60,061 bases of DNA from Candidatus Omnitrophota bacterium (GTDB lineage Bacteria > Omnitrophota > Gorgyraeia > Tantalellales > Tantalellaceae). The first letter of the stretch is position 1. Every line of letters starts with the position of its first letter. Shown here in pieces: positions 7,470 to 43,076 of this stretch. The notes below the pieces were generated by a model. That model searched no databases, was not told the DNA's origin, and worked only from the letters and a program-made list of their open reading frames with translations. A program made the position numbers and the translations under genes. Location: contig JADHWG010000004.1 of NCBI GenBank assembly GCA_016783605.1, positions 1-60,061 on the forward strand. Reading direction: 5' to 3'.

Positions 7470-7502
7470 GATTCAATACCAAACAAACGAAGGAGAAAAA
7501 CA

Positions 7503-26766: not shown

Positions 26767-26910
26767 CGAATAATAAAGAATCTGATAGGATATAAGGGGC
26801 TGTCGCAAAATACCCCCAAAATGTCATCCTCGCGAACGCGGGGATCTATGATATAAAGTGGGCAGAATGGAACTCTTCATTTGAAGATTGACGAGGTACT
26901 AGTATCACGA

Positions 26911-28014
26911 ATGATGAAAATATTACTTTTAACTACACACATTAATATCGGCGGTGTCGGATTCTATACCGTGAACCTCGCGAAATATCTCCGAAAAATG
27001 GGGCACGAACCGGTTGTGGTCTCCTCCGGAGGCGATCTTGAAGAACTCCTACAAAAAGCCGACGCCAGGCATATTAAGATGGACCTAAAAACAAAAGCGG
27101 AATTCGGCTTTAAAGTCGCCAAAGCGATACTCCCTTTGACCCGTTTGGTCCAAAAAGAAGGTTTTGATGTTATCCACGCCCAGACACGCGTCGCGCAAGT
27201 CGCCGGAGGCATAGTTTCAAAAATTACGCGCGTGCCGATAGTTTCAACAGGTCACGGTTTTTTTAAACACGAAAGACTCTTTCGAAAACTTTTTCCTTTC
27301 TGGGGAGATAAAATCATCGCGATAAGCGAAAGCGTACGCGGACATCTTATAAACGATTTTCATATAGACGAAAAAAAGATAACCGTAGTTTATAACGGAA
27401 TAGAACTTGACCGATTCTTAAGAAAAAACGGTAAAATAGACCAAAATATGAGAGATAAAATGTCTTTAGATCGAGATCTAACGATCGTGGGCGCCATCGG
27501 AAGACTTTCTTCGGTCAAAGGCTACATTTATCTAATCAAAGCATTTAAAAAAGTCGCCGAAAAAAACAAAAACGCGCGGCTCTTACTCGTAGGCGAAGGC
27601 GATGAAAAACCAAAACTGGAAAAAGAAGTGAAAGAGGCAGGATTAACGAATAAAGTCATATTCGAATCAAAAAAAATGGCAACTGAAGACTATCTATCAG
27701 TTATGGATATTTTCTGCCAGCCGTCGATAAAAGAAGGCTTAGGCTTAGCGCTCATCGAAGCAATGGCATCCGGAAGAGCGTGTATAGGAAGCAACGTAGG
27801 CGGCATCCCCGAAATAATAGACGACGAGATAGACGGTATCCTGGTTCCTCCGGAAAATCCGGAAGCTCTGGCAGAAGCAATAACCCGCCTATTGAGCGAC
27901 GCCGAACTAAAACAAACATTCTCCACCCGCGCCCCCCAAAAAGCCCAAACCAAATTTTCCATAGAAGAAAATGCAAGAAAAACGGCGGAAGTATACGAAG
28001 AAGCGAGAAGTTAG
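26911..28014 (+). CDS. GT4 glycosyltransferase
   Basis: GGVG, HAQT, EGLGLALIEAMASG, GGIPEII. Confidence 0.9.
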   Translation: MMKILLLTTHINIGGVGFYTVNLAKYLRKMGHEPVVVSSGGDLEELLQKADARHIKMDLKTKAEFGFKVAKAILPLTRLVQKEGFDVIHAQTRVAQVAGGIVSKITRVPIVSTGHGFFKHERLFRKLFPFWGDKIIAISESVRGHLINDFHIDEKKITVVYNGIELDRFLRKNGKIDQNMRDKMSLDRDLTIVGAIGRLSSVKGYIYLIKAFKKVAEKNKNARLLLVGEGDEKPKLEKEVKEAGLTNKVIFESKKMATEDYLSVMDIFCQPSIKEGLGLALIEAMASGRACIGSNVGGIPEIIDDEIDGILVPPENPEALAEAITRLLSDAELKQTFSTRAPQKAQTKFSIEENARKTAEVYEEARS

Positions 28015-28041
28015 GAAAAAAATAGTGTCTGCCCCTATTTA

Positions 28042-28252
28042 TGCTAATGTTTTTCCGGAAGAACACAAACAGATCAAAATATTCGCGGCTATTCACGGAG
28101 AGATCATACGGGAATATGTGATGGAGAGTGTACGCGAACGTTTAGAAGGAGAAAAAGAACAGGCGCAGTTAACAGCAATGACTATGAAAATCGATCAGCC
28201 GTTGAAGGAAGTCTGGGAAAACGAAAAGGACGCGGAATATGACAAAATATAA
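28042..28252 (+). pseudogene. 5'-truncated RHH-type antitoxin remnant
   Basis: PEEHKQIKIFAAIHGEIIREYV...WENEKDAEYDKI coupled to a PemK remnant; no plausible start after the boundary motif. Confidence 0.5.
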
Positions 28253-28406
28253 ATGTCGAGATGTTGTTCTTGTCGATGTGATGTTTTCGGATGGATCCGG
28301 GATAAAAAAAAGACCCGCACTTATTCTTCCTTCTTTGGTTACGGGAATTTTTCAAACGATAAATGGGAAACTGATCAATCGAAAGTTAGCTGTATTGGTT
28401 CGTTAG
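28239..28406 (+). pseudogene. PemK/MazF-family toxin remnant, 55 aa, internally deleted
   Basis: Manual translation: MTKYKCRDVVLVDVMFSDGSGIKKRPALILPSLVTGIFQTINGKLINRKLAVLVR*. Confidence 0.7.
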
Positions 28407-28749
28407 TTTTGATGTAAAGCGATTTATAAGAGTCAATCATATCTTTTATATGTTCAAAGGTATCGGGGTTAATTTCTTCTTTTTTTATAATGTTTTTCGC
28501 TACTGCCATAGATATTAATACATCTTCACAGGGAAGATTATATTTTTTCCAAAGTTCTCTGAAAATACCATTATGAAATTTATGAATTATTTCTTTAAGT
28601 TGGAAACAATCTATTTTTTTTGTTCGCCATCTGTCAAAATATTTAGCTAAATGTTCAGTGTAGTTATCAAGTTCCCGTTTATATGCTACGCTAACCAATT
28701 CCTTTAAATTTTTTTTTATTGGTTTGGGATATTTTTTCATTTTATTCAT
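28375..28749 (-). CDS. Hypothetical protein (minus-strand cassette)
   Basis: 124-aa ORF starting 7 nt after the GTTAGCA of a minus-strand attC. Confidence 0.7.
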   Translation of the reverse strand: MNKMKKYPKPIKKNLKELVSVAYKRELDNYTEHLAKYFDRWRTKKIDCFQLKEIIHKFHNGIFRELWKKYNLPCEDVLISMAVAKNIIKKEEINPDTFEHIKDMIDSYKSLYIKTNEPIQLTFD

Positions 28750-28756
28750 TATTTTA

Positions 28757-28825
28757 TGCTAACGCAAAAGTTCACCTGCCGCCGAATGAAGTGAGGGAAC
28801 CAAATAGCGCAGTGATTTGTTATGT
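28757..28825 (-). mobile_element. Degenerate attC site (21-bp deletion)
   Basis: Minus strand ACATAAC...GTTAGCA; near-identical to attC 35081-35170 but lacking TACCTGACCGCCAAATTGCTA. Confidence 0.8.
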
Positions 28826-28834
28826 GTTTTTATT

Positions 28835-29053
28835 TTATGAAACCCATCGCAGTGAAGGTTTACGATGAGAATGAACGCAATCAATTAAGTACAGATCTAT
28901 CAAATTCTGGTATGGAATACCTATTTTCTCCGATAGATTCTTAAAATAATCAATTACTTCTACTCCTATCCTCATGGTAACCTGTCGTTTCAACCGTTTA
29001 GCATAAGGATTTTTTCTTTTTTTCATTTTAGCCAGATCGTATTCTTTCTTCAT
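28835..29053 (-). CDS. BrnA-family antitoxin
   Basis: MKKEYD..NPYAKRLK, VTMRI, IPYQNLI. Confidence 0.88.
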   Translation of the reverse strand: MKKEYDLAKMKKRKNPYAKRLKRQVTMRIGVEVIDYFKNLSEKIGIPYQNLIDLYLIDCVHSHRKPSLRWVS

Positions 29054-29343
29054 GATAAACCTCCAATATATTCTTTTTCTTCTCTTTTAGTTGCTTTGCG
29101 AGCGGATATTATTCTTATCATCGATGCGCTTTTTCTATAACAGTGACAAACCAACAAAGCACGTAATTTATAACTCAACCCTAAAAGGAGCAATCTATTT
29201 TCTTTAGAAGAATGCGTGTTATCGTAGAATTCAATAGCATTATCGTCATAAAAAACTGTTTGAGCTTCTTCAAAAGAGACGCCATGCTTCGCCTGATTTA
29301 TCTTATCTTTTCGTTCATCCCATTCAAAACGAAGCTTGCTCAT
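29050..29343 (-). CDS. BrnT-family toxin
   Basis: FEWDERK..N..KHGVSFEEA, RIISARKAT. Confidence 0.92.
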   Translation of the reverse strand: MSKLRFEWDERKDKINQAKHGVSFEEAQTVFYDDNAIEFYDNTHSSKENRLLLLGLSYKLRALLVCHCYRKSASMIRIISARKATKREEKEYIGGLS

Positions 29344-29349
29344 AATTAT

Positions 29350-29378
29350 ATTATACCTATGTCATAATGACATGTCAA
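29350..29378 (-). promoter_or_regulatory. Consensus sigma70 promoter of brnTA, probably leaderless, with operator palindrome
   Basis: TTGACA-17-TATAAT-6 nt-ATG; ATGTCAT-T-ATGACAT in the spacer. Confidence 0.85.
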
Positions 29379-29475
29379 GACTGCTCTCTCTTTTTTTAAC
29401 CATTATATGTCGAATCCGCTTTTAATGGTATTATAGAAGAAAAGCAGAAATAGTCGAGGCTATCCTAACAAAATC

Positions 29476-29505
29476 TTGACAAATCTTCCAAAATTATGCG
29501 ATACT
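29476..29505 (+). promoter_or_regulatory. Candidate cassette promoter (Pc-like)
   Basis: TTGACA-18-GATACT with extended -10 TG, about 55 bp upstream of the first cassette crossover. Confidence 0.6.
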
Positions 29506-29519
29506 GAGCTTGAAAATTA

Positions 29520-29565
29520 GTGACGTTATCAAAAAAAAGTGGATGCTACATATTAACTGTTATAT
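29520..29565 (+). mobile_element. Candidate attI site
   Basis: GTTATAT (29559-29565) complements ATATAAC closing cassette 1; no attC hairpin precedes it. Confidence 0.55.
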
Positions 29566-29586
29566 AAAAAATAAAGGAGAATACTA

Positions 29587-30042
29587 ATGGAAGAAAAAAT
29601 AATAATACCTGATGGAAATTTTGAAGTAGTTCGCGAACAAGGAGAATATTTTAAGGCAGGAATTCAGAGTATGGTTTCTTTAAATAAAAAACTTATTGAA
29701 ACAAATAATCAATTAAATGAGCTGGGAAGACAAATTAAGGATTCAGCTATATTATTGCAAAAATCAAGTGAAAAAACTGCTGAAACAAATAACAAATACA
29801 CAAAATCATTAGTTAAGCTTACATTTGCGTTAGTATTTGTCGGATTAGTTCAAGGTCTTATAATGTATTGGAATTCAAGCATAATGGGAAAACAAACAAT
29901 AGCTATGGAAAAGCAAGTTTCAGCTATCAATAACCAATCTCAATCAATACAAGCCCAAACATATATTATGGAAAAACAGGCTAAGATAATGGCTGCGCAA
30001 TACAACAAAAGTCTTCCGTTAGGAAGTGCTGAACAAATGTAA
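29587..30042 (+). CDS. Cassette 1: coiled-coil single-TM hypothetical protein
   Basis: SD AAGGAG; hydrophobic LTFALVFVGLVQGLIMYW flanked by Q/N-rich heptads. Confidence 0.75.
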   Translation: MEEKIIIPDGNFEVVREQGEYFKAGIQSMVSLNKKLIETNNQLNELGRQIKDSAILLQKSSEKTAETNNKYTKSLVKLTFALVFVGLVQGLIMYWNSSIMGKQTIAMEKQVSAINNQSQSIQAQTYIMEKQAKIMAAQYNKSLPLGSAEQM

Positions 30043-30049
30043 AAAAAAT

Positions 30050-30123
30050 ATATAACAATTCAATCAACCGGACTTTTTCCGCGGCTTCGCCGCTCCAAAA
30101 GCCGGTTATTTCAAGCGTTATAG
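30050..30123 (+). mobile_element. attC site 1
   Basis: ATATAACAATTCAATCAACCGG...CCGGTTATTTCAAGCGTTATAG; classic top-strand attC pattern. Confidence 0.92.
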
Positions 30124-30137
30124 GAAAATAATTAAAA

Positions 30138-30791
30138 ATGGAAAAATTAAATAAAGAAATCGTTGTGCAAACCTGGTTTTTTCGTGGACTTGAGGATATA
30201 TTTTTTGCTTTTCAAATTGAATCGCCTTTTCGCTACGAACCATTTTTTCATACGATGGGTTTTGAAATGATATGCAAATCATATTTATTGGCTAAAGAAT
30301 CAGCTAAATATGAAAACATGGAAAGGGATCAGGCAATCCAAAAAATTAATACATTAGCAATACAATGGGGTCATAACATAAAGAAAATGGTTGATGAGAT
30401 AAAAAACGACATAAATAATCCTGTTTTTTCTGCCGCATTAAGTGCGAGCTACGATTCTTTTACGGGGGACCAATTCATCAAAGTAATGGAAGCTGCTTAT
30501 TTAGAATGTCGCTACCCTGTGCCTAAACACATTCATGAGGAATTCCCAATAGATGGACAAACAGATCTTCATTGGGAGCCTCTTGCTTCATCTGGTCTCG
30601 AGAAATTTTGTTTTGCATTCATGAAGAAAATCATAATTTATTTAAAGAAAAGATTTAATATACCCATACCCAAAAAAGAATTTGATAAAATCATAACAGA
30701 CGAGGCAGGGGTAAGATTCTGTAATTTATTTTTAAAAGATATTCCAAATGATTTTTTAGAAAATGAACCTATAACAAGTCATTTCACCTGA
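30138..30791 (+). CDS. Cassette 2: HEPN-like protein
   Basis: FEMICKSYLL, WGHNIKKM, YLECRYP resemble HEPN signatures. Confidence 0.65.
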   Translation: MEKLNKEIVVQTWFFRGLEDIFFAFQIESPFRYEPFFHTMGFEMICKSYLLAKESAKYENMERDQAIQKINTLAIQWGHNIKKMVDEIKNDINNPVFSAALSASYDSFTGDQFIKVMEAAYLECRYPVPKHIHEEFPIDGQTDLHWEPLASSGLEKFCFAFMKKIIIYLKKRFNIPIPKKEFDKIITDEAGVRFCNLFLKDIPNDFLENEPITSHFT

Positions 30792-30842
30792 CCTTTTCTG
30801 CGGCTTCGCCGCTCCAAAGGCAGGTGAATTCCGATGTTATGG
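30769..30842 (+). mobile_element. attC site 2
   Basis: CTATAAC...TTCACCTG..CAGGTGAA...GTTATGG. Confidence 0.9.
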
Positions 30843-30849
30843 TAAAAAT

Positions 30850-31479
30850 ATGACTTACGAAGAAAAAATATTTCTTGTTTGCGGTTCTGGGGTAACGGTA
30901 TCATTCGCATATGAAAGACTACTCTCAACTATCGACGCTGCGAGGATGCAAATGAAACGAATATGGGATCAAATATCCTTGTTACCAAAACAGCCCGAAT
31001 TATCTCCTACTGATCCAGAATTTCAAAATAAAGCAAAGGAATATAAAATAACAGTTCAAGGAAACTATCGTCCAATTTTCAACGATATACATTTTTATTT
31101 TATTACTTGGGGCGGAATTAGATCAATGATGGGCGTTATTGCAAATCAACCAGAATTCAAAGAAGCAAATATAATTTTCAATTCACACCGTAAAACCATC
31201 GAACATTATATAAATGCGAGAAACACCTTCGAACACTTTGACGAGAGGCTTCCAGGATGTAAAAACCACGAACGGGTTAAAGAAGTTCAGGCACAAGGAG
31301 CTAGCCCGAGAAAAATTTTGAAAGGTATTTCAAAGAAAGGGTATTATCTACATTCCGATAAAAAATGGGACATAAAACCTTCCAGTTTAAAATTATTAGA
31401 AGAAATAACTCAGGAATTTATAGGCGCTGTTAATAGCAAGATAGATCTATTGTTGAAAGAAAAAAATATAAAACCATAA
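30850..31479 (+). CDS. Cassette 3: hypothetical protein with an Rx4H (HEPN-type) motif
   Basis: ARNTFEHFDER in a helical protein. Confidence 0.65.
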   Translation: MTYEEKIFLVCGSGVTVSFAYERLLSTIDAARMQMKRIWDQISLLPKQPELSPTDPEFQNKAKEYKITVQGNYRPIFNDIHFYFITWGGIRSMMGVIANQPEFKEANIIFNSHRKTIEHYINARNTFEHFDERLPGCKNHERVKEVQAQGASPRKILKGISKKGYYLHSDKKWDIKPSSLKLLEEITQEFIGAVNSKIDLLLKEKNIKP

Positions 31480-31541
31480 CAATGCGCTTCAGCGAATTTG
31501 TACCGCTGCGCGGTCCAAATCGCTGAGCTTAGACGTTATGA
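31474..31541 (+). mobile_element. attC site 3
   Basis: CCATAAC...TCAGCGA..TCGCTGA...GTTATGA. Confidence 0.9.
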
Positions 31542-31551
31542 GAAAAAAATA

Positions 31552-32376
31552 ATGAAGAAAAAACTAATAAATCAGATACGAAGCCTTCTTGATGAAGGAG
31601 AAAAATTTACGTTTAGCAATTTTTGCTATCCTCATAATCAACCTGACAGATGGGGCGGCGAGGATAAACCTGAATGGCTTGCATGGAAAACTAGAAGCTA
31701 TAACTTTATTTCTCAAATTGCAGCTCCTAATTCTTCCGCTCAGACATTAGCAGAAACCGCTATAGGAATTAGTACAAGTGGGAATTATCCAAAAGAATTT
31801 GAACGCCTAAAAGAAACCATGATTAAGGCTTTAAAATTAGCTGAGCAAAGCATAAGAAAAGACTCCTTTGGAGAGCTTAAAAAACAATCAATAAAAACCA
31901 CTTCCACTAAGTTTTCAAATAAAATTTTTGTTGTCCATGGTCATGATCATACATTAAAGGCGGAAGTCGAAAGCTTCCTAAATGATATTGGGCTGGAACC
32001 AATTATACTGCATAAAAAACCTGATGAAGGCCAAACTATCATTGAAAAATTTGAGAAGCATAGTGACGTTGGGTATGCATTTGTTTTACTTACACCAGAT
32101 GAAATAGCCTACACTATCGATCAAGACAGTATTTCTGATCAAAAACGTAAAAAAGAGAAAAGAACTCGTCCAAATGTAATCTTTGAATTTGGATATTTTG
32201 CAGGAAGATTAGGACGAAATCGTGTGTGTTGTGTATACAAAGAAAGCGTAGCTGTTCCAAGTGATTTAAAAGGATTTCTGTATAAAGAAATTAAAATATC
32301 ATTTAAGGAAAAAGCATATGAAATAATGCAAGAACTTAGCGCAGCAGGATATAAAATAAAATTTAAAAACTCATAA
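31552..32376 (+). CDS. Cassette 4: TIR-domain protein (CAP12/Pycsar-type TIR)
   Basis: KIFVVHGHD, TIIEKFEKHS, FVLLTPDE, RPNVIFEFGYF, PSDLKG. Confidence 0.88.
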   Translation: MKKKLINQIRSLLDEGEKFTFSNFCYPHNQPDRWGGEDKPEWLAWKTRSYNFISQIAAPNSSAQTLAETAIGISTSGNYPKEFERLKETMIKALKLAEQSIRKDSFGELKKQSIKTTSTKFSNKIFVVHGHDHTLKAEVESFLNDIGLEPIILHKKPDEGQTIIEKFEKHSDVGYAFVLLTPDEIAYTIDQDSISDQKRKKEKRTRPNVIFEFGYFAGRLGRNRVCCVYKESVAVPSDLKGFLYKEIKISFKEKAYEIMQELSAAGYKIKFKNS

Positions 32377-32444
32377 CAACTCAATCGAGCGGATTTTTCC
32401 GCCGCTAAAACGACTCCAAAAACCGCTCATTTCAAGCGTTATGA
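32371..32444 (+). mobile_element. attC site 4
   Basis: TCATAAC...GAGCGG..CCGCTC...TTCAAGCGTTATGA. Confidence 0.9.
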
Positions 32445-32459
32445 GAAAAAAATAATAAA

Positions 32460-33086
32460 ATGAAAAATATGTGTCCACCGTGTATGGATAGAACAATATT
32501 AAATTTATTGACATTGCTAATCACAGGAGCAGGTATATTTGCTATATTGATTAAGTATGATGTTCCTCAGTTAAGCTACGCTTTCTTTGACGAAAATCCC
32601 TATGCGATAAAGCGAGACGTTATCAGTAAAATTTTAACTAGCACTTTTATCGGGTTAGCTTCCCTTGGTTTATTTCTACAGGCATATGGCATGATTATTG
32701 GGAACAAACTAAATGAAAGAGTTTATGACTATTCTTTTTATACAAAATTTTTTCTAGTTGGAATCGTTGGAATGTTCGTTTTTGTTGTTACTCTAGGTGC
32801 TATAGGTAGATGTATAGCTAAAAAAACATGGTGGCCTAAAATTATTCAAAGCCAATCCGAAGCTTTCAAAATGGCGGGAGATATCATAAGAAATAAAGGA
32901 TTCTATAACAAGGAATTGGATAAAATTGAAAAATTTTCTGATGAACAAAAAGAAGAATTGCCAATCCAGCGCTATCAACAATGTGATAAATATTTAACCC
33001 AAATAGAAGATTTATTGGAAATACGAAATATCCCGAAAATTAGAGAAGAAAGATATAGGAAATTAGAAAAATATTTTAAAGAATAA
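32460..33086 (+). CDS. Cassette 5: 3-TM membrane protein with soluble C-terminus
   Basis: Three hydrophobic stretches; flanked by attC sites. Confidence 0.7.
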   Translation: MKNMCPPCMDRTILNLLTLLITGAGIFAILIKYDVPQLSYAFFDENPYAIKRDVISKILTSTFIGLASLGLFLQAYGMIIGNKLNERVYDYSFYTKFFLVGIVGMFVFVVTLGAIGRCIAKKTWWPKIIQSQSEAFKMAGDIIRNKGFYNKELDKIEKFSDEQKEELPIQRYQQCDKYLTQIEDLLEIRNIPKIREERYRKLEKYFKE

Positions 33087-33090
33087 AAAC

Positions 33091-33161
33091 TCATAACAAA
33101 GCAATCCAGCTGACCAATTCCGCACTTCGCGCGGTCTTGGCAGCTGATTTTTTCGTTATAT
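33091..33161 (+). mobile_element. attC site 5
   Basis: TCATAAC...CAGCTG..CAGCTG...GTTATAT. Confidence 0.88.
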
Positions 33162-33873
33162 GAAAAAATATAAAAAATGGTATTACAACCATGCACCATT
33201 CTTTTTTAGAATATATATATTGTCGATGTTTTTTTTACTACACTCAACAAATATGTATGCACAGAATTTACAATCAATAGAGTTTGCGGAACATGAAAAT
33301 AATTACATCGCGACAACCCTTAAGCTAATGACTGAGTTAGGATTTGTGGTGCGGGATACATTTAAAAACAACATGAATCTAGATGACTTTTATTCAAATG
33401 GGAATAAGTACAATGGGGCAAGGCTTTTTCGTATTAAGTGGATAGATACTACAGATAGTGGTTATGCAGAGGTACAAGCAAAAAGGGCTTATAAAATTAA
33501 GAATTATTCATCTCAAGCCTACGATGACTATACAATCTTAATGCTTCAAAAATATAAAGCCCAATACAGAGAAGATCCAATTATTCACGAGTGTGTTCAT
33601 TTCCTTCAGCATGCTACTCATAAGGATGAAAGTAATTATATTGATTTTACCGGCAAAAATTATCGTGAATATGTTATGCAACGCACAGAATTAGAAGCTC
33701 ATTTGGTGCAGATTCTTTATATTGTTAAAAATAATCACGAAAGATTAAAAAAGCATCTGTCAAGAGAACAACAGCTAAAGCTTGAAAAGATAATTTCTGA
33801 ATATAAAAAATCTCGAAATATTCTTGCTGGGGTTGAGGCCATAATAATGTGCAAGCAAGGAGGCTTGATCTAA
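33160..33873 (+). CDS. Cassette 6: putative exported zincin metalloprotease-like protein
   Basis: IIHECVHFLQH (HExxH) plus downstream ELEAH; hydrophobic N-terminus. Confidence 0.6.
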   Translation: MKKYKKWYYNHAPFFFRIYILSMFFLLHSTNMYAQNLQSIEFAEHENNYIATTLKLMTELGFVVRDTFKNNMNLDDFYSNGNKYNGARLFRIKWIDTTDSGYAEVQAKRAYKIKNYSSQAYDDYTILMLQKYKAQYREDPIIHECVHFLQHATHKDESNYIDFTGKNYREYVMQRTELEAHLVQILYIVKNNHERLKKHLSREQQLKLEKIISEYKKSRNILAGVEAIIMCKQGGLI

Positions 33874-33991
33874 AGTTAATACTTAGCGGTTTTATGACAT
33901 GTAAGGCTACCTTGATTTCGGTACTTAAACCTTTGATTTTTACTTCTTTCGAAATATTTGGGAACTTTAGACAATATGATAATATGAAAAC

Positions 33992-34057
33992 ACATAACAA
34001 TTCAATCAACCGGGCTTTTTTCGCTCGCCTCTGGCGGGCTCCAAAAGCCGGTTATAA
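33992..34057 (+). mobile_element. attC site 6, lacking its R' end
   Basis: ACATAACAATTCAATCAACCGG...CCGGTTAT, without the TTCAAGCGTTAT seen in attC1. Confidence 0.8.
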
Positions 34058-34072
34058 ACGATTTGGAAAACA

Positions 34073-35086
34073 ATGAAATCAAACAGTGAAATGATAATCT
34101 ATCAGTCTCCTACCGGCAATATAAAAATAGACGTCCATTTGGAAAATGAAACCGTCTGGCTAACCCAAAAACTGATGGCAGAGCTTTTTCAGACCGCTGT
34201 ACCCAATATAAACATGCATCTTAAAAGCATTTATGAAGAAGAGGAATTAACAGAAGAGGCAACTATTAAGGATTTCTTAATAGTTCAAAAAGAAGGTAAC
34301 CGAGAAGTAAACCGTAAACAGAAATTCTATAATCTGGATGTTATTATATCTGTGGGATATAGAATAAAATCACAAACTGCAACACAATTCCGTATCTGGG
34401 CAACCAAGAGGCTAAAGGAATACATTGTTAAAGGTTTTGTCCTCAATGACGAAAGGTTTAAAACCGGCAATTCCATGAATTATTTCAATGAGTTGCAGGC
34501 GCGTCTACGAGAAATACGCCTTTCTGAAAGGTTTTTTTATCAAAAAATAAAAGACATTTATGCAACCAGCATAGATTATGATCCCAAAGATGAAGAAACG
34601 ATCGAATTCTTTAAGATAATACAAAACAAACTACTCTGGGCAATCAGTAGCCAAACAGCCGCGGAACTTATTTACAGGAGAATAGACGCTTCTTTGCCTT
34701 TATTAGGTATGCAGTCTTATGACAAGGATAACGTTGGAAAAATCAGGAAAAGTGATGTCAGCATTGCCAAAAACTATTTAAATGAAGAAGAAATAAAGCT
34801 TCTTGGTTTATTGGTTGAACAGTACCTTGCTTTTGCGGAAACAATGGCACAGCAACATACACCAATGTACATGAAAGACTGGATGAGCAAACTGGATAAT
34901 ATTTTACAGATGAATGGCAGGGAACTACTTACCCATGCCGGAAAAATAAGTCATCAAATGGCTATTGAAAAATCAAATCAGGAATTAGAAAAATATAACG
35001 AAGAACAAAAAAAAATAACCCATGAACAAAGTTTAAAAGAAATTGAAGAGGATATAAAGAGATTAAAAAAAGATAAAGATACATAA
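34073..35086 (+). CDS. Cassette 7: RhuM-family protein
   Basis: ETVWLTQKLMAELF, YNLDVIISVGYRIKS..ATQFRIWA, GFVLNDERFK. Confidence 0.92.
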   Translation: MKSNSEMIIYQSPTGNIKIDVHLENETVWLTQKLMAELFQTAVPNINMHLKSIYEEEELTEEATIKDFLIVQKEGNREVNRKQKFYNLDVIISVGYRIKSQTATQFRIWATKRLKEYIVKGFVLNDERFKTGNSMNYFNELQARLREIRLSERFFYQKIKDIYATSIDYDPKDEETIEFFKIIQNKLLWAISSQTAAELIYRRIDASLPLLGMQSYDKDNVGKIRKSDVSIAKNYLNEEEIKLLGLLVEQYLAFAETMAQQHTPMYMKDWMSKLDNILQMNGRELLTHAGKISHQMAIEKSNQELEKYNEEQKKITHEQSLKEIEEDIKRLKKDKDT

Positions 35087-35170
35087 CAAATCGCTGTACC
35101 TGACCGCCAAATTGCTACGCGATTTGGTTTCCTCACTTCGTTCGGCGGCAGGTGAGCTTTTGCGTTAGGA
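35081..35170 (+). mobile_element. attC site 7
   Basis: ACATAAC...ACCTGACCGCC..GGCGGCAGGT...GTTAGGA. Confidence 0.88.
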
Positions 35171-35179
35171 GAAGAAAAA

Positions 35180-35413
35180 ATGAATAATAATTCGGGATAC
35201 TATAGCGATGATGGGGAAAAATTAAATCCAAATCTTATCTCTAAACCATCATTATGTACAATGTGTAAAAAAGATGATAATCCAGAAGAAGAAATATTGT
35301 GTAATCTAAATAGGTTGGACCAAACAGATTCTGAAGAATTTAAATGTTATTCATATGAACAAAAATATAATCCGAATTCAGACGAAGAGTCAAAATATCA
35401 TGCATCACTGTAG
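35180..35413 (+). CDS. Cassette 8: small acidic four-Cys protein
   Basis: CTMC..C..C; SD AGGAG; stop codon supplied by a REP. Confidence 0.7.
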   Translation: MNNNSGYYSDDGEKLNPNLISKPSLCTMCKKDDNPEEEILCNLNRLDQTDSEEFKCYSYEQKYNPNSDEESKYHASL

Positions 35414-35525
35414 GGGCCGGGCCTGCCCGGCCCTCCAATTAATAATAACAAGGCGTGGTATAAACAATAAATTATCGAAGAATAATAAATCATAAATTAA
35501 AGGACAAGGCATGCCTTGTCCCTAC
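35410..35525. mobile_element. REPIN-like doublet of GTAG REPs
   Basis: GTAGGGGCCGGGCCTGCCCGGCCCT ... AGGACAAGGCATGCCTTGTCCCTAC. Confidence 0.7.
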
Positions 35526-35558
35526 AGGATATTTGTGATAAAACGAAAATAAACAAAA

Positions 35559-35580
35559 TTATAACAATTCAATCAACCGG
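35559..35580 (+). mobile_element. Left half of an attC site, truncated just before intI
   Basis: TTATAACAATTCAATCAACCGG matches the attC1/attC6 left arm; right arm absent. Confidence 0.75.
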
Positions 35581-35591
35581 TATTTTGGGGG

Positions 35592-37065
35592 ATGAAGAGT
35601 ATGCGGGAAGAGATTTTACCGGAATTTCAGAGGTTTTTAATTGCGAAGGGGCTTGGCAGTTCCAGGACTGCGCCTTATCACGCGTATTGGGTGGGCAGGT
35701 TTCTATCGTTTTCCAACGATCACCGGGACTTGTCTTTTGAGGCAAGGATGAGTGAGTTTTTTAGTTATCTGAGGGGTCGGGGAGTTTTTCTCCGAACCCT
35801 CATCCCGAGCAAAGCGAAGGATCTCTGGTTAATTTTTCAAAAGGGTCTAATAGAGATCCTTCAGCCCTTTGGGCTTCAGGATGAGGAGTCGGGAAACTCC
35901 CCGACCCCTCAGTTATCTTCATCATCATAACACTGCGGATTGGCAAATGGAGCAAGCATGGGAGGCGGTTAAAATTTATTTCGAACATTTTCAGGCAATT
36001 GATACGAAGCAAGTATCTGATGTGTCTTATTTTGGGCATAATTTTGCCGAGTCGGACATTATTGACAGGGCGCGTCAGGCACTACGTCTTAAGCATTATT
36101 CATATGCTACAGAGCGGGCATATCTTGATTGGGTCAGGCGGTTTTTTGTTTATGTTCAGAATGAAAAAAAGAAGGATGACGCGAAGTGGCCCGTAGGTTC
36201 TGATGACGTAAAAGAATATCTGAGTTATCTAACGACGAAGCAAAAGGTTTCTTCATCAACTCAGAATCAGGCTTTCAACGCGCTTTTATTTCTGTTTAGA
36301 GATGTGCTTGGGATTGAGCTAAGCGGGTTAAGCAAGGTTGTACGGGCTAAAAGGGGGCCTAAATTGCCCGTGGTGCTGACGGTAGAAGAAGTTCGCGGTT
36401 TGTTTCAATTTGTAAAAGAAAGAAATCTGCTTATTATTCAGTTGTTGTATGGTGCGGGTATGCGTTTAATGGAAGTGGTGCGTTTACGGGTAAAAGATAT
36501 TGATTTTGATTCGGGGTTAATATTTGTACGAAGTGGTAAGGGGGATAAAGACCGTTCGACTATCTTGCCGCGGGTTACAAAAGAACAATTATGCGGCCAT
36601 TTAGAAAAGATAGAGATTTTACATAAAAAGGATATTGATCAAGGACATGGCGAAGTGTATTTACCGAATGGGCTTGGGCGTAAATATCCTAATTCTGCAA
36701 AAGAGTGGGGATGGCAGTATGTGTTCCCCGCGTCAAACCTTTCAGTCGATCCGCGCAGTGGGAAAGTGCGGCGTCATCATATCAGTCCCAGTACGATACA
36801 AAAAACGGTTAAAGAGGCGGTTAAAAAAGCGGGGATCGTTAAGCCCGCGACCGTTCATACTTTAAGGCACAGTTTTGCCACGCATCTTTTAATGAATGGG
36901 GTTAACATAAGGGCTATTCAGGAACTTCTGGGGCATAAGAATGTTGAAACAACAATGATTTATACGCATGTCTTAAGAGAAATGGCGAACATGCCCAAGA
37001 GTCCGTTAGATAATCTTTATGGGGAAGATCTAACGCGGGAGAAGGTTACCGGATTATTGAAATAG
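35592..37065 (+). pseudogene. intI: Integron integrase with N-terminal extension, frameshifted by a MITE; core domains intact in ORF 35869-37065
   Basis: LKHYSYATERAYLDWV, STQNQAFNALLFL, GMRLME, IntI-specific insert VYLPNGLGRKYPNSAKEWGWQYVFP, HTLRHSFATH, LGHKNVETTMIYTH. Confidence 0.9.
35771..35910. mobile_element. 140-bp MITE inserted in intI
   Basis: 17-bp perfect TIR GAGGGGTCGGGGAGTTT; 8-bp TSD AGTTATCT at 35763-35770 and 35911-35918. Confidence 0.93.
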
Positions 37066-37196
37066 TGCAACGGTTCTATTTCTTGACCTATTGGGCAGAA
37101 GACAATCGGAGAAGGCTGAAAAAATAGAATCCTTTTTTTGATTGGATGGAGAAATTAAATTAGTACGCAAATTCAATTCATGGAAGGAAAATTTAG

Positions 37197-37490
37197 ATGA
37201 AAAAATCAATTATTCCATTGGAGCAGAATGATTTCTTTCTTTATACGGGTGTTGACGGTAAGGTGAATGTTGAAGTGTTCCTGAAAGATGAAACGGTTTG
37301 GCTTACACAAAAAGCGATGGGGCAACTTTTTGGGGTTGAAAGCAACACCATTACTTATCATCTGAAAGAAATATATAAGTCGGGAGAACTTGAAGCGGAT
37401 GTAACTGCTCGAAAACTTCGAGCAGTTCAAGCCGAAGGGGAAAGAGAGGTAACAAGGACAAAAATAGGGACAGACACACACTTTAGGTAA
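37197..37490 (+). pseudogene. 3'-truncated RhuM-family gene
   Basis: ETVWLTQKAMGQLF..HLKEIYKSGEL..EGEREV, then abrupt switch into the AAATAGGGACAGACAC motif. Confidence 0.8.
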
Positions 37491-37649
37491 TTAGGGACGG
37501 TTTTTTTTGATTGAACAGATCCCGAAATATCGGGATAGCAAGGGTGTGAGTGAGGTGTTTCTGATTATTGGAGATTCCCGCCTTCGCGGGAATGACAAAG
37601 GGCGCGAGGATGACAGTGAAGGGAAGGTGCTATAATTACTGTTATCGAT

Positions 37650-37735
37650 TTGAAGTCACAATCTGTGACTTCAAGTTGGGGTAGAAGGCGTTATTTTTCG
37701 CATATTTTTACTGGGCAAGGAGTGGCGATGCTCTT
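37650..37735 (+). pseudogene. ORF6N-domain gene fragment
   Basis: Manual translation LKSQSVTSSWGRRRYFSHIFTGQGVAML resembles the ORF6N motif ...SQ..TSSWGG.R..PYAFTEQGVAML. Confidence 0.7.
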
Positions 37736-37755
37736 AAAATTAAATGGAGAGCGAT

Positions 37756-38814
37756 ATGAGTATCTTGGTGAATAATAAAGAGTATAGACAGTGGCTTTTA
37801 AAGCTGAAGAGTAAAATCCAAAAGGCTCAAATCAAAGCCGCTGTTAAAGTGAATACAGAACTTTTATTGCTTTATTGGGAAATAGGTGCGGATATAGCTC
37901 AAAAGCAAAAAAATGCCAAATGGGGAACAGGATTTGTTGATCAATTGAGCAAAGATTTAGTGCGAGAATTCCCAGATATGAAGGGATTTTCCCGAACGAA
38001 TCTTTTGTACATACGTAAATGGTATTTGTTTTATTCAAAAGGGATTGAAAAAGTCCCACAAGTTGTGGGACAAATAGAACGTTCTCAAATTAAAGATATT
38101 TTTTACATTCCATGGGGGCAAAATAGGGAAATTATTACCAAGTGTAAAACTACAGACGAGGCTCTTTTTTATGTACAAAAAACCATTCAACATAATTGGA
38201 GCCGTAATGTCCTTGTACATCAGATAGAAAGCGGTCTTTTTGAGAGAGAAGGAACATCTGTCAATAATTTCACCTTAACTCTCCCCAAACCGCAGTCTGA
38301 CCTTGCGAAACAAACTCTTAAAGATCCTTATGTGTTTGATTTTTTAAGTATGACCGAAGATTATCATGAAAAAGAACTGGAAAATGTTCTTGTTGAGCAC
38401 ATAACGAAATTTTTATTAGAGTTGGGTGCGGGGTTTGCTTATGTTGGGCGGCAGATTCGATTAGAAGTTGGCGAAGGTGAGTTTTTTGTTGATCTGTTGT
38501 TTTATCACGTAAAACTACATTGTTATGTTGTGGTGGAATTAAAGACCGGTAAGTTTGAGCCGGAACATGCGGGGAAATTAAATTTTTATGTAACAGCCGT
38601 AGATCGTCAATTAAGGTCAGTATCAGATCAGCCGACTATTGGCATTCTTATTTGTAAAACAAAAGATAAAATCGTGGCAGAATATGCGTTAAGCGACATT
38701 AAAAAACCGATAGGAGTTTCACAGTATCAATTAACAAAAGCATTACCCAAAAAGTTTAAATCCAGTTTGCCGTCAATTAAAGAAATTGAGGCGGAATTGA
38801 GTGATAAGAAATAA
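37756..38814 (+). CDS. YhcG/DUF1016 PD-(D/E)xK nuclease-domain protein
   Basis: AAVKVNTELLLLYWEIG, GFSRTNL, KDPYVFDFL, FLLELGAGFAYVGRQ, DLLFYH, VVELK. Confidence 0.92.
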   Translation: MSILVNNKEYRQWLLKLKSKIQKAQIKAAVKVNTELLLLYWEIGADIAQKQKNAKWGTGFVDQLSKDLVREFPDMKGFSRTNLLYIRKWYLFYSKGIEKVPQVVGQIERSQIKDIFYIPWGQNREIITKCKTTDEALFYVQKTIQHNWSRNVLVHQIESGLFEREGTSVNNFTLTLPKPQSDLAKQTLKDPYVFDFLSMTEDYHEKELENVLVEHITKFLLELGAGFAYVGRQIRLEVGEGEFFVDLLFYHVKLHCYVVVELKTGKFEPEHAGKLNFYVTAVDRQLRSVSDQPTIGILICKTKDKIVAEYALSDIKKPIGVSQYQLTKALPKKFKSSLPSIKEIEAELSDKK

Positions 38815-38950: not shown

Positions 38951-39994
38951 ATGAAACGAATACTTATTTTTGAATTGAATTGGCTGGGGGATATACTTTT
39001 TTCTTTTCCGTTTATTCGGGAGGTGAGGAGGGCGTTTCCTTCGGCGCGTATCGCGGTGGCGGTTGTGTCTCGGTATCGGGGGCTTTTTGCGGGGAATGCG
39101 TGTGTTGATAAGGTGCATGTGCTTTCGGACTCGCGCGGCGCGGGGGCTTTTTTGGAGAAGGTGAGATTTGCGCGGGAAATTGCCGGGGAGAAATATGATG
39201 CTTGTTTTTTTCTGAAACCTTCTGTTTCTAAGGGGGTTATGGCGTTTTGCGCGGGGGTTCGTTCGCGTATTGGGTTTGGCGGGAAGCGGATGTTTTTGAC
39301 CGAATATGTGAAGGCGCCTTCGGAAAACGTGCATAGGGCTCGGCGGTTGTTGGCGTTGGCTGGGGGGTTTGGCGGCGCGGTTGGGGATGATACGTATGAA
39401 TATGTTGTGCCGGCGGAAGATCCGGGAAAAGTTGATAAGTTGGTTCATTCTGCGGCGGAAGGCGGCTGGCGAGTTATTGCGTTTAATCCGGGAGGAAATT
39501 GGGGGGCTAAAAGGTGGCCGGTGGAGAATTTTATTTGTTTGGCGAAGGGTGTTCTCGAAAAATTCAGCGGTGTTGAAATTGTTGTTACCGGCGCGAAAAA
39601 GGATGTGGGACTTGCGGAAAAAATAGTTTCGGGGGTTGGAAGTGAGAGGTGTTATTCTGTCGCGGAAAAAACGGATTTGAGGGTTCTGGCGGCGTTGTAT
39701 AAAAGGTGCGCGCTTTTGGTTAGCGCGGATTCGGGACCGATTCATTTGGCTTCGGCGGTGGGGACGACTACGATCGGTATTTTTGGGCCTACGGATCCGG
39801 AGGTTACCGGGCCGAGAGGGGTGGGGAAAAGTGTTATTGTGCGAGAGAGAGTTGATTGTAAAATTCCTTGTTATGAAGAGGTGTGCGGGGAAGATTATGT
39901 GTGTATGAGAGATGTGACTGTCGGGAAAGTTTTTAAAGCGGTTTGTGCAGAATTGGGTGGTGGGAATAGAGATCCCGGGTCAAGCCCGGGATGA
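38951..39994 (+). CDS. GT9 LPS heptosyltransferase (WaaF-like)
   Basis: NWLGD, KRWP, DSGPIHLASA, FGPT. Confidence 0.88.
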   Translation: MKRILIFELNWLGDILFSFPFIREVRRAFPSARIAVAVVSRYRGLFAGNACVDKVHVLSDSRGAGAFLEKVRFAREIAGEKYDACFFLKPSVSKGVMAFCAGVRSRIGFGGKRMFLTEYVKAPSENVHRARRLLALAGGFGGAVGDDTYEYVVPAEDPGKVDKLVHSAAEGGWRVIAFNPGGNWGAKRWPVENFICLAKGVLEKFSGVEIVVTGAKKDVGLAEKIVSGVGSERCYSVAEKTDLRVLAALYKRCALLVSADSGPIHLASAVGTTTIGIFGPTDPEVTGPRGVGKSVIVRERVDCKIPCYEEVCGEDYVCMRDVTVGKVFKAVCAELGGGNRDPGSSPG

Positions 39995-40258
39995 CAAATG
40001 TGTGGCGGGGATGACAGAGTTGGGAAGCGGGAAAGACGCTCCCTTTTGTCATCCTCGCGGATGCGGGGATCTCTTGGGATGTATAATGTGTTAGGTTTTT
40101 TTATTTTTATATTATGGATTCCCGCGTTCGCGGGAATGACGGGGTTTGGATTCCCGCGTTCGTAGGATGGTAGCAAAGAGCGCTACCAACCTACGAGGAT
40201 GATGGTAAAGAGCGCTACCGACCTACGTGGATGGTGGTGAGGTGCGGGGTGTGATATT

Positions 40259-41272
40259 ATGAAAATAGATGAGAAAAAAGTTAAGTCTATATTGTTTGTA
40301 ACTTTGAATAATCTGGGGGATATTATTTTGACTACTCCGGTGTTTTTGGAGCTTTGTCGGAATTTTCCGGGGGCGGTTATTGATGTTATGACAGGAAGTG
40401 CGGGAGAGGAGATATTTGTTTCGCATCGGGCTGTTCGGCGGGTTGATAAACACAGGAGGCGTCTTTCGGTTCTTCAAAGGATTCCTGTGGTGCGGGCTCT
40501 TAGAAAAAAGCGGTATGATCTTGTTATTGATCTAAAGAATTCTCTTTTGCCGAATTTGATCGGGGCGCGGTATCATAGGAGTTTGATGAGTTTAATTTTG
40601 GAGCCGGTTAAGCGGAAAATTCGGCGTCATAAAAAAGAAGAACATTTAGCGCGGTTGGCGGATTTGGGGATAGAGGCGTCCGTTCCTTCCGATTTTTATA
40701 TTCCGGAGGCGGAAGAAAATAAAAAATATATTTGCGAAGTTATGGGTTCACGCGGGAAAGCCGTTATTTTGAACCCGGGGTCGAAAAGTCATCTTAAGAG
40801 GTGGCCGGCGGAAAAATTTGCTGAGCTTGGGGATAGATTAAGTTCGGAGTTGGGTTGTGGGATATTTCTTATTGGGAACGAAGCGGATAAAGAAGTTGTT
40901 GAAAGGGTAAAGCGCGGGATGAAGTCTCCTTTTGTGGATCTATGTTGTCGGACGTCGGTGTCTTGTCTTTATTCGGTTATGAAGAGGAGTGTTCTTGTTG
41001 TTACGGGGGACAGTGCGCCGCTTCATGTCGCGAGTGCCGTCGGTGTCCCGGCGGTCGCGATCTTTGCTTCGACGGATGAAGTTAGGTATGGGCCGTTATC
41101 GGCGGGGAGTGAGGTTGTGGTTCCGGCGGTTGAGTGCAGGCCTTGTAATTTAGCGAATTGCGCTTTGGGGCGTGAAAATGGGTGTATTACGGATATAGGA
41201 ACGGAAGAAGTTTATAGCGTGGCGAAGGAAATTTTGGAGTTTATCGCACCACCAACCAGCGTAGGTTATTAG
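40259..41272 (+). CDS. GT9 LPS heptosyltransferase-family protein
   Basis: NNLGDIILTTP, KRWP, DSAPLHVASA. Confidence 0.88.
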   Translation: MKIDEKKVKSILFVTLNNLGDIILTTPVFLELCRNFPGAVIDVMTGSAGEEIFVSHRAVRRVDKHRRRLSVLQRIPVVRALRKKRYDLVIDLKNSLLPNLIGARYHRSLMSLILEPVKRKIRRHKKEEHLARLADLGIEASVPSDFYIPEAEENKKYICEVMGSRGKAVILNPGSKSHLKRWPAEKFAELGDRLSSELGCGIFLIGNEADKEVVERVKRGMKSPFVDLCCRTSVSCLYSVMKRSVLVVTGDSAPLHVASAVGVPAVAIFASTDEVRYGPLSAGSEVVVPAVECRPCNLANCALGRENGCITDIGTEEVYSVAKEILEFIAPPTSVGY

Positions 41273-41341
41273 GGCACGGCATGCCGTGCCCCTACGGTAC
41301 GCGAAGTTGCCGGTGGGGGAAGAAAGAATGGGAGTGGTATT

Positions 41342-41872
41342 TTGGGCAGGATTATTATTAAGCTGGGGGATATTACCGATGAGGACGTGGAAGTGGTTGT
41401 GAACGCGGCGAATGTGGGGCTTCGCGGGGGCGGTGGTGTGGATGGGGCTATTCATCGCGCGGGAGGTGTTTCCATTATGGAGGAATGCGGGCAGATTGGC
41501 GGGTGTAAAACAGGTGAAGCTGTGATTACGAACGCGGGGCGATTAAAAGCTAAAAAGGTGATCCATACTCCGGGACCGGTTTGGAAAGGCGGGGGAAAAG
41601 GGGAAGCGGAGTTTTTGAGAAGTTGTTATCGGAATTCTTTTCGTCTTGCGAAAGAAAACGCGTTGAGAACAATAGCGTTTCCGGCGATAAGCGCGGGGGT
41701 ATATGGGTATCCGATCTTTGAGGCCGCGAAGATCGCTTTGGAAGAAGGGATTCGTTGTAAGGGTGATTTTGATGAGGTGAGATTCGTATGTTTTTCGGAA
41801 GAAGGTTATCGGGTTTATTTGGGAGTGTATGAAAGAATGACAAATGACAAAGCACAAATGACAAGAGAATGA
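41342..41872 (+). CDS. Macrodomain O-acetyl-ADP-ribose deacetylase (YmdB-like)
   Basis: GDIT, VNAAN, GGGGVDGAIH, AFPAISAGVYGYP. Confidence 0.93.
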   Translation: MGRIIIKLGDITDEDVEVVVNAANVGLRGGGGVDGAIHRAGGVSIMEECGQIGGCKTGEAVITNAGRLKAKKVIHTPGPVWKGGGKGEAEFLRSCYRNSFRLAKENALRTIAFPAISAGVYGYPIFEAAKIALEEGIRCKGDFDEVRFVCFSEEGYRVYLGVYERMTNDKAQMTRE

Positions 41873-42002
41873 CAAATGACAAAATTCAAAATAACGAGGG
41901 ACAAGCTGATGCCCCGCCACCAACCTCGTAGGATAGTGGTGTGAGGGGCCACCACTAACCTACGAGGATGGTGGCGGGGCAGGTTGTAAATGGAGTTAAG
42001 AT

Positions 42003-43076
42003 ATGGAATATAAACGAATATTGATAACTCGGACGGATCGGTTGGGGGATGTGGTGCTTTCCACTCCGATTATTCGGTTTATGCGGAAGATGTATCCTTC
42101 GGCTTATATCGCTTTTATGGTGAGGCCGGAAAATCGTGATGTTGTGGAGAATAATCCGCATTTGGATGAAGTTATAGTTTATGACAAATACGGGTTGGAA
42201 AAAAGTTTTTGGAAAACTTTTTTGTTTGCTTTAAAACTTCGGAAAAAGAAGTTTGATGTGGGAATCGCTTTACATCCGACGAATCGAACGCATATTATTT
42301 TGTTTCTGGTCGGGATTCCCTCGAGAATCGGGTATGACAGGAAGATGCCGCGGCTTCTCACGCGGGCGATAGCGCATGAAAAAGAGAAGGGCGAAAAGCA
42401 TGAGATCGATTATAATTTTGATCTTTTGACACAGGCCGGGTTTAATACTGAGCGTGCCGATAGGCGTCCGTATATTGTAACTTCCGATGATGATAAAAAA
42501 TTGGTGCGGGTGATAAAGAAAGAGTTTGGTATTGGCGAGAATGTAATTGCTTTTCATATTGGCGCGAGTTGTCCGTCAAAGAGGTGGGCTCCGGAGAAGT
42601 TTGCTTATGTCGCGGATAAATTGGCGGAAAAATATCGAGCGGATATTGTTTTGATTGGCGCGGAAGAGACCGGTAAGTTCGCGGATGAGATGATAGCGAA
42701 AATGAAAACAAGACCTATCAGTTTGATAGGCGCTTTGCTTATAGGGGAACTCGCGGAGTTTCTCGCCGGGTGTCGGGTGTTTATTTCGAATGATTCCGGG
42801 CCTGTGCATGTCGCGGTGGCGGTAAAAACGTCCACTATAGTTATTTTTGGGCGTAGTGACCCGGGACTTTCTCCCAAAAGGTGGGCTCCGGCGGGGGAGA
42901 AGGATATTGTGCTTCATCGAGACGCGGGGTGCGGGAGGTGTTTGGCGCATAATTGTGAGAAGGATTTCGCGTGTTTGAAGGCGGTTACGGCGGAGGAAGT
43001 GTTGGAAGGGGTTGAGAGGGTGTTGGGGGGATTTTATTCTAGAAGAAAGGGCAGACATGGAAATTGTTTTGGATGA
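42003..43076 (+). CDS. GT9 LPS heptosyltransferase-family protein
   Basis: RTDRLGDVVLSTP, KRW, NDSGPVHVA. Confidence 0.88.
   Translation: MEYKRILITRTDRLGDVVLSTPIIRFMRKMYPSAYIAFMVRPENRDVVENNPHLDEVIVYDKYGLEKSFWKTFLFALKLRKKKFDVGIALHPTNRTHIILFLVGIPSRIGYDRKMPRLLTRAIAHEKEKGEKHEIDYNFDLLTQAGFNTERADRRPYIVTSDDDKKLVRVIKKEFGIGENVIAFHIGASCPSKRWAPEKFAYVADKLAEKYRADIVLIGAEETGKFADEMIAKMKTRPISLIGALLIGELAEFLAGCRVFISNDSGPVHVAVAVKTSTIVIFGRSDPGLSPKRWAPAGEKDIVLHRDAGCGRCLAHNCEKDFACLKAVTAEEVLEGVERVLGGFYSRRKGRHGNCFG

Follow-up and report, generated by a model that had tools for sequence, protein, structure and literature searches.

How can an integron go on exchanging cassettes when its integrase gene lies at the far end of the array from its insertion site? 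The question is raised by a locus in a 60,061-nt stretch of contig JADHWG010000004.1 (assembly GCA_016783605.1, Candidatus Omnitrophota bacterium, family Tantalellaceae), the whole of which is called the window here. Integron models place intI, attI and two divergent promoters on one compact platform, to which regulation of the integrase (for example, SOS control at PintI) is tied. In the window, by contrast, an array of eight plus-strand cassettes with seven strong attC sites (29559 to 35580) leads straight into a plus-strand intI, and the crossover point of the attI-like site (29559/29560) and the intI start (35601) lie on the same strand, 6041 nt apart. We take this to be a genuine chromosomal integron with a third topology, in which Pc/attI, the cassettes and intI follow one another on one strand, and propose that it probably arose by a flip of the platform and subsequent cassette insertion.

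The array itself has the structure expected of integron cassettes. Eight plus-strand open reading frames (ORFs) lie between 29587 and 35413, and the first seven are each followed by a strong attC (Table 1). Each site is an imperfect palindrome with RYYYAAC at one end and GTTRRRY at the other and folds into a hairpin, and the stop codons of the cassette ORFs fall within or just ahead of the R'' core. We built an attC covariance model from eight window sites (seven on the plus strand and one on the minus strand), so the scores of these eight follow by construction; when aligned with RNAalifold they shared 20 consensus pairs, 11 of which showed compensatory changes. For five of the eight cassettes, the 5' heptamer is the exact complement of the cassette's own attC R'', a pairing equalled by only 0.06% of the 40320 partner permutations (permutation P = 0.0006). 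These two results bear out the rightward polarity that an earlier reading of this DNA from its letters alone (the sequence-only reading) had drawn from core and inverse-core heptamers. With intI starting 20 nt past the last attC remnant, the array is not a cluster of attC sites with no integrase nearby (CALIN). Outside the window, the genome contains one further attC-like match (G000:C62:1069-1145, 43.5 bits), which stands behind a 218-aa ORF as a lone cassette outside the integron.

The same order recurs in a second genome of the genus (G001, here the sister), whose IntI (P0001) is intact and has 92% protein identity to that of the window. On sister contig C74, plus-strand attC sites at 586-666, 1642-1723 and 3288-3362 precede an intact plus-strand intI that begins at 3368. 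Contig C207, read as its reverse complement, starts within the platform, in a stretch with 90% identity to 29508-29575, after which come four cassettes with four attC sites; in all four cassettes the 5' heptamer is the exact complement of the cassette's own R''. The last 55 nt of C207 are the first 55 nt of C74, and a metagenome contig (L112) repeats part of C74 and reaches the same right-hand chromosomal genes. Read across these contigs, the sister order matches that of the window: platform, cassettes, attC, intI. The attI-proximal cassettes differ between the two species, and the distal rhuM cassette, near intI, is common to both at 95-96% identity. Cassettes of the sister array encode proteins that, judged by eye, resemble IS200/RAYT-type transposases.

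At the other end of the array, we compared three copies of the platform: that of the window (P), its counterpart in the sister and a further sister copy (P'; L192, G001:C74, 5612-5745). All three are identical through CATATTAACTGTT, up to CATATTAACTG/TT (the slash marks the crossover), and then continue into three different sequences. Because they diverge right after this point, 29540-29561 behaves as an attI, at least as judged from sequence comparison, and the attI that had been suggested at 29520-29565 is thereby backed. In both species, the 5' heptamer of the first cassette at this site is fully complementary to the R'' of the same cassette (GTTATAT/ATATAAC in the window and GTTATAC/GTATAAC in the sister), and such matched ends have the signature of attI x attC products.

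Two promoter-like sites stand back to back on the platform, each where the sequence-only reading had placed it, including the weak leftward TATAAT. The rightward, Pc-like site (29476-29505; TTGACA-18-GATACT with an upstream TG) matches the consensus at 10/12 positions and is conserved in P', and the leftward site occupies 29457-29430 (TCGACT-16-TATAAT). Promoter-like matches overall were not enriched (40 compared to 34.9 +/- 6.2 in shuffles). Homology between P and P' spans from the crossover to about 29415. A TCCTAAC at 29463-29469 was ruled out as a junction: it sits inside a 12-nt insertion relative to P', with homology on either side. A weak attC-like match at 29470-29537 (17.9 bits, E 0.34) was not used. 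P' contains a perfect 28-nt palindrome, GGATTAGTCAAGATATCTTGACTAATCC, across both -35 boxes, which is broken in the window platform by the 12-nt insertion; it may be an operator.

To place this layout among its relatives, we scanned 80 genome loci and 80 metagenome loci with related IntIs, oriented so that intI is on the plus strand, for attC matches at E up to 1, and compared positions by eye. There were 28 matches in 18 genome loci and 66 in 30 metagenome loci, of which 26 and 62, respectively, lay on the minus strand upstream of intI. The canonical position (upstream, opposite strand) thus accounts for 88/94 matches. Four of the others were on the plus strand downstream (one each in L098 and L069, two in L170), and the only two on the plus strand upstream both came from the sister's contig L112. 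The canonical form is illustrated by G008, from the same family, with a minus-strand cassette, GCCTAAC, 235 nt containing promoter-like sequences and then the intI ATG. The survey upholds the description of this layout as non-canonical, with Pc/attI at the far end and the array running head to tail into intI. Contig L170 (intI at 7133-8395) has arrays on both sides, with a minus-strand attC upstream (5079-5167) and plus-strand attC sites downstream (9773-9837 and 10643-10726).

The junction between the last attC and intI is informative about history. A half attC does exist in the window: the R''-L'' half of attC1 and attC6 has its counterpart at 35559-35580. The sequence-only reading offered an inversion as one way to explain it, but in the sister the site is complete (27.1 bits, E 0.0028), and compared with it the window copy is short of 34 nt (loop, L' and the R' G), with TTATAACAATTCAATCAACCGG kept and TTTGGGGGA following. 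The half site is thus a decayed attC with a 34-nt internal deletion, not a rearrangement scar. The sister R' (GTTTGGG) runs directly into GGAGGAACAGT and the GTG start of intI, including a GGAGG, so that intI occupies the position of the next cassette and starts 11 nt past the core site. The distance from the last attC to the intI start codon is 11-20 nt, and the earlier remark that intI has no room for a promoter of its own holds for the sister's 11 nt. We also considered the half attC as a full site running into the intI coding sequence (35555-35640; 15.6 bits, E about 1); the right half of this stretch encodes the family-conserved ILPEFQ(K/R)FL, and the resemblance to attC was therefore taken as chance.

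The integrase is a bona fide IntI: the ORF at 35869-37065 scored 419.4 bits against TIGR02249 (cut-off 265) over profile positions 2-315 of 315. By homology, the gene starts at the ATG at 35601, not at 35592. Between window and sister, intI differs by a synonymous divergence (dS) of 0.226 and a nonsynonymous divergence (dN) of 0.039, and the ratio of 0.17 indicates that the gene evolved under purifying selection. In this genome, intI is broken by the insertion of a miniature inverted-repeat transposable element (MITE), which the sequence-only reading had overlooked. The ortholog P0001 (436 aa) begins MREEILPEFQ and reads from SEFFSYL straight into CHHNTADW, parts that in the window lie in different frames and 148 nt apart, and the target duplication AGTTATCT, present in the window at 35763-35770 and 35911-35918, is single in the sister's intact gene (an empty site). 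The insert is short, palindromic, non-coding and flanked by this duplication, with 25-nt terminal arms that are 92% complementary. A further 27 copies (at least 130 nt, at least 88% identity) occur in the genome, a very high number for its size of 1.65 Mb, many of them at contig ends (for example, G000:C48:22167-22321 and C61:46547-46694), and the element probably fragments the assembly for this reason. An Rfam scan gave a single sub-threshold match, to a plant miRNA on the MITE hairpin, which we judged spurious. A search of the window's own genome found no second integron integrase: the sole high-scoring match was the window gene, and the rest were Xer-like (E about 1e-13 to 1e-17). The IntI belongs to a very large family of IntI proteins (~430-440 aa) with an N-terminal extension, several of which are named by their sources as Omnitrophota or Thermodesulfobacteriota integron integrases. 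The extension of ~100 aa (P0001 residues 1-100) is well conserved (for example, L6, F9, Q10, W30, F34 and W65) and falls in no Pfam family.

Cassettes enter an integron between the G and the TT of attI, and the sequence now found behind the last attC therefore stood behind attI originally; on this reasoning, attI formerly adjoined the ribosome-binding site (RBS) of intI, and the empty ancestor would have read Pc-attI-RBS-intI. Such an ancestor would most likely have come about when the ~155-bp platform with promoter and attI flipped in a canonical integron, possibly because attI and an attI-like GTT site directly ahead of the intI RBS underwent double-strand recombination. The old cassettes, brnT-brnA (BrnTA) and a 124-aa ORF, would have stayed behind on the minus strand. 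These are found where the flip predicts that an old array would remain: brnTA with its promoter, a minus-strand attC and the 124-aa ORF lie just past the platform. The promoter of brnTA (29378-29350) matches the consensus at 12/12 positions, and the minus-strand attC (28751-28829) is 85% complementary to attC7 over 71 nt, which supports it independently of the covariance model. IntI acting in trans would then have inserted and exchanged cassettes at the re-oriented attI, moving intI ever farther from Pc.

Lacking a promoter, intI would plausibly depend on read-through of transcripts that start at Pc or at cassette promoters; the plus strand contains no promoter-like site between 34995 and 36409, which makes read-through the likeliest source of an intI transcript. 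The dependence on array length that the sequence-only reading attached to read-through would be in keeping with the sequence. The cassette turnover at attI and the dN/dS of 0.17 suggest that the rearranged system kept working. The present system is decaying, with a MITE in intI and a last attC that has lost 34 nt.

Recombination of the kind proposed here has been reported in the laboratory. In the parts of Escudero et al. 2016 (PMC4792948) available to us, IntI1 uses a second strand exchange to invert the DNA between inverted attI sites, no clear integrase-dependent rise in inversion was obtained with inverted attC sites, and replicative resolution of inverted sites is described as abortive. 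The available text of Souque et al. 2023 (PMC10127599) describes integrase-dependent inversions between inverted GTT secondary sites. As far as these portions go, the events took place on reporter constructs and plasmid backbones, and neither source presents a natural integron with its own platform flipped and working.

Several observations weigh against a platform flip with vertical descent. We found no unflipped relative with the platform in the canonical place, and the flip is therefore known only by inference. A search for platform P in 400 other genomes of the phylum gave nothing significant (chance-level short matches only), and P was not found upstream of intI in 91 other loci. The inverted repeat at the platform ends (17/22) is not significant: its score was reached by 124/2000 neighbourhood shuffles, and eight other places in the window scored as high or higher. 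For the BrnTA cassette, the assigned 5' end (TTAAAA) and the R'' (ACATAAC) are not complementary. Training of the attC model was confined to window sites, and matches were accordingly obtained in only 48/160 survey loci. In the sister, the link between C207 and C74 depends on a 55-nt overlap within a repeated attC. The sister also carries P', a second and inverted platform copy downstream of intI, which the proposed history does not predict; it points back at intI, lies between a single minus-strand ORF of 203 aa, behind it, and the heptosyltransferase gene, and may be the remnant of a second integron. Lastly, flanking genes (window 38951-43344 against L112 4669-8769) have dS values of 0.75, 0.91 and 1.20, compared with 0.23 for intI and 0.09 for rhuM. 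On this measure intI is far younger than its flanks, which implies that the integron core, at a chromosomal site that is itself conserved, was exchanged horizontally or homogenised after the hosts diverged.

The rival history that survives best is the first of the two alternatives in the sequence-only reading, namely that a single inversion turned round a canonical array together with its attI (about 29.4-35.6 kb), leaving the distal BrnTA and 124-aa cassettes on the minus strand and bringing the last attC up to intI. Minus-strand cassettes with their attC just past the platform, a G/TT at the attC-intI junction and the canonical form of the relatives are all compatible with it, and it ends in the same final structure as the platform flip, so that the sequence alone cannot fully separate the two. 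We nevertheless consider it rather unlikely. The attI-proximal cassettes differ between species and have perfectly matched ends, which speaks against a frozen inverted block, as does the sharing of the distal rhuM; the half attC that the inversion was meant to explain is a later deletion; and, within the published material cited above (PMC4792948, PMC10127599), inverted folded attC sites react unproductively (PMC4792948), which disfavours one-step inversion of the whole block.

It is more doubtful that intI moved in the manner of a cassette, with excision of the piece from TTTGGGGGAGG to about the stop codon at a pair of GTT secondary sites and its insertion into a plus-strand array that already existed, at the R' of the final attC. 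The block common to window and sister does start at the attC8 R' and end at GAAGGTTACCG (window 37051), which leaves 14 nt to the stop, with unrelated DNA flanking it on both sides, and the two genomes resemble each other far more closely in intI than in the flanks. However, neither genome has an attC after intI, TTACCG (by reading the sequence) pairs with the attC8 R'' worse than other candidates do, and the minus-strand cassettes left of the platform would go unexplained. Although we made no dedicated literature search on the point, we know of no case in which an intI gene was mobilised as a cassette.

We give a similarly low probability to two unrelated pieces lying side by side: an array with the attI-like platform of a lost integrase, and a solitary intI that lost its own attI and array. 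This would account for the absence of a detectable homolog of P near any other intI, and P' in the sister is just such an orphan platform with no integrase alongside. Yet the last attC R' runs straight into the intI RBS in the same way in two species, intI has been under purifying selection while IntI-type cassette turnover went on at P, and the search of the window's own genome found no second integron integrase.

A chimeric contig is very improbable despite the repeat-rich, metagenome-assembled genome in 72 contigs, given that contigs from another study match both junctions without a difference, that a second species has the identical order and that neither junction sits in a long repeat. 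Specifically, contigs of run X4 (the other study) cover 28000-30079 and 34468-35799 with 0 differences and thereby span both array junctions, which removes the misassembly that the sequence-only reading had named among the findings that would refute its layout. Contigs of run X1, which may be the source sample, are equally free of differences over both intervals. Contig breaks in these runs fall at attC1, inside rhuM, at the MITE and at the REP-like (repetitive extragenic palindromic) repeat, and at neither junction. Among the contigs of four runs, we found no joint for the opposite orientation of the block and no MITE-free intI joint; contigs drop rare variants, so minority forms of the block are undetectable there. 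Low-support joints in run X8 (for example, 30691 to 37191, with one side of 21 nt) were disregarded.

The integron reconstructed here, with a flipped platform as its probable origin, resembles canonical sedentary chromosomal integrons in its parts: a TIGR02249 IntI, attC sites with R''/R' cores, hairpins and compensatory changes, cassettes of ORF plus attC with matching ends, insertion, as judged from comparison, at a single attI-like G/TT behind a Pc-like promoter, a toxin-antitoxin cassette with its own promoter and a defence-type (TIR) cassette. It differs in their arrangement, because 6.0 kb separates attI/Pc, at the array's far end, from intI, and intI is downstream of, and co-directional with, the cassettes, without a promoter region in the 11-20 nt between the last attC and its start codon. 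It also differs from the Treponema type (T. denticola), in which, in the portion of PMC3607928 available, intI is transcribed toward attI and the order is intI, attI, cassettes. In the window, attI comes first, then the cassettes and then intI; no attC lies downstream of intI, both attI and the array being upstream of it; and the large, N-terminally extended family of this IntI is otherwise canonical. The available sections of Cury et al. 2016 (PMC4889954) describe inverted integrases as sporadic and paraphyletic, so that rearrangement of integrons as such is already known. We found no description of the attI-cassettes-intI topology in the literature, as far as the sources were available; Supplementary Figure S2 of PMC4889954 may hold similar cases.

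On this reading, the locus is a natural case, in two species, of a platform that was taken apart and of cassette exchange that continued at an attI 6 kb from an intI under purifying selection. It follows that the linkage of intI and attI in cis is dispensable in nature, and integrase expression may be coupled to array length. Annotation tools that score only an 'inverted' intI would merge this topology with the Treponema type. A more speculative idea, possible but unlikely in our view, is that of a self-limiting integron in which intI is the permanent last gene of the operon: its Pc-driven expression would be highest with an empty array, drop with each cassette captured and rise on excision. 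As an extension, the ~155-bp platform might be an integrase-invertible switch between two attI-like sites that redirects Pc and the opposite promoter between the left array (BrnTA and beyond) and the right array with intI.

Table 1. Coordinates of the integron and its surroundings in the window
Feature	Position	Strand	Details
Glycosyltransferase gene, left chromosomal flank	26881..28014	+	ORF; putative function from reading the translation
124-aa ORF, cassette outside the plus-strand array	28375..28749	-	No Pfam or NCBIfam family
attC in opposite orientation, closing the BrnTA cassette	28751..28829	-	63.6 bits, but member of the training set
brnT-brnA toxin-antitoxin cassette	28835..29343	-	PF04365, E 1.4e-28; PF12441/PF14384
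Integron platform, ~155 bp	29403..29561	+	Two promoter-like sites and attI core ending CATATTAACTG/TT; left limit (~29403) inferred
Cassette 1	29560..30117	+	151-aa ORF 29587-30042; attC1 30046-30129; GTTATAT complements R'' ATATAAC, 7/7
Cassette 2	30118..30836	+	217-aa ORF; attC2 30765-30848; heptamer 7/7
Cassette 3	30837..31535	+	209-aa ORF; attC3 31470-31547; heptamer 7/7
Cassette 4	31536..32438	+	TIR-domain protein, CAP12/Pycsar effector type (PF10137, E 1.1e-35); attC4 32367-32450; heptamer 7/7
Cassette 5	32439..33155	+	208-aa ORF; attC5 33087-33167; heptamer 7/7
Cassette 6	33156..34060	+	237-aa ORF; attC6 33988-34072 with degenerate R' GATTTGG; heptamer 6/7
Cassette 7	34061..35164	+	rhuM-family gene (PF13310, E 6.6e-103); attC7 35077-35176; 95-96% identity with sister copy
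Cassette 8	35165..35583	+	77-aa ORF; REP-like hairpin pair 35408-35527; attC8 remnant 35559-35583 (R'' and L'' only)
intI, N-terminal part	35601..35770	+	56 codons and target site; matches residues 1-57 of intact ortholog P0001
MITE inside intI, 140 bp	35771..35910		Terminal inverted repeats; 8-bp target duplication AGTTATCT
intI, remainder	35911..37065	+	SAM-like and catalytic domains; TIGR02249, PF13495, PF00589; frame shifted by 1 relative to N-terminal part
Non-cassette filler, intI to right flank	37197..38814	+	Truncated second rhuM-like gene 37197-37490; REP-like stretch; yhcG/DUF1016 nuclease gene 37744-38814
Heptosyltransferase-like gene, right chromosomal flank	38951..39994	+	ORF; function from reading the translation; flank common to the sister genome

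The integron lies in an island of ~10.5 kb between the glycosyltransferase gene, which ends at 28014, and the heptosyltransferase-like gene, which starts at 38951 (Table 1). A covariance-model scan found no attC in the filler at 37197..38814. Among the cargo of the plus-strand array, the TIR gene (31555-32376) travels as a single-cassette cargo, and its CAP12/Pycsar-type family (PF10137) makes an anti-phage function likely. The other six cassette ORFs, that is, all but those for TIR and RhuM, fall in no Pfam or NCBIfam family. The stretch 28026-28406 holds a ParD-like antitoxin gene and, behind it, a PemK/MazF-like toxin gene, apparently truncated after ~33 codons, where the minus-strand cassettes start; this remnant probably marks the left edge of the island. 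Finally, GC-rich REP-like hairpins (GTAGGGGCCGGGC...) occur within the AT-rich array at 35408-35527, and also at 37535-37650 and at about 330-370 of L202 (reverse complement).

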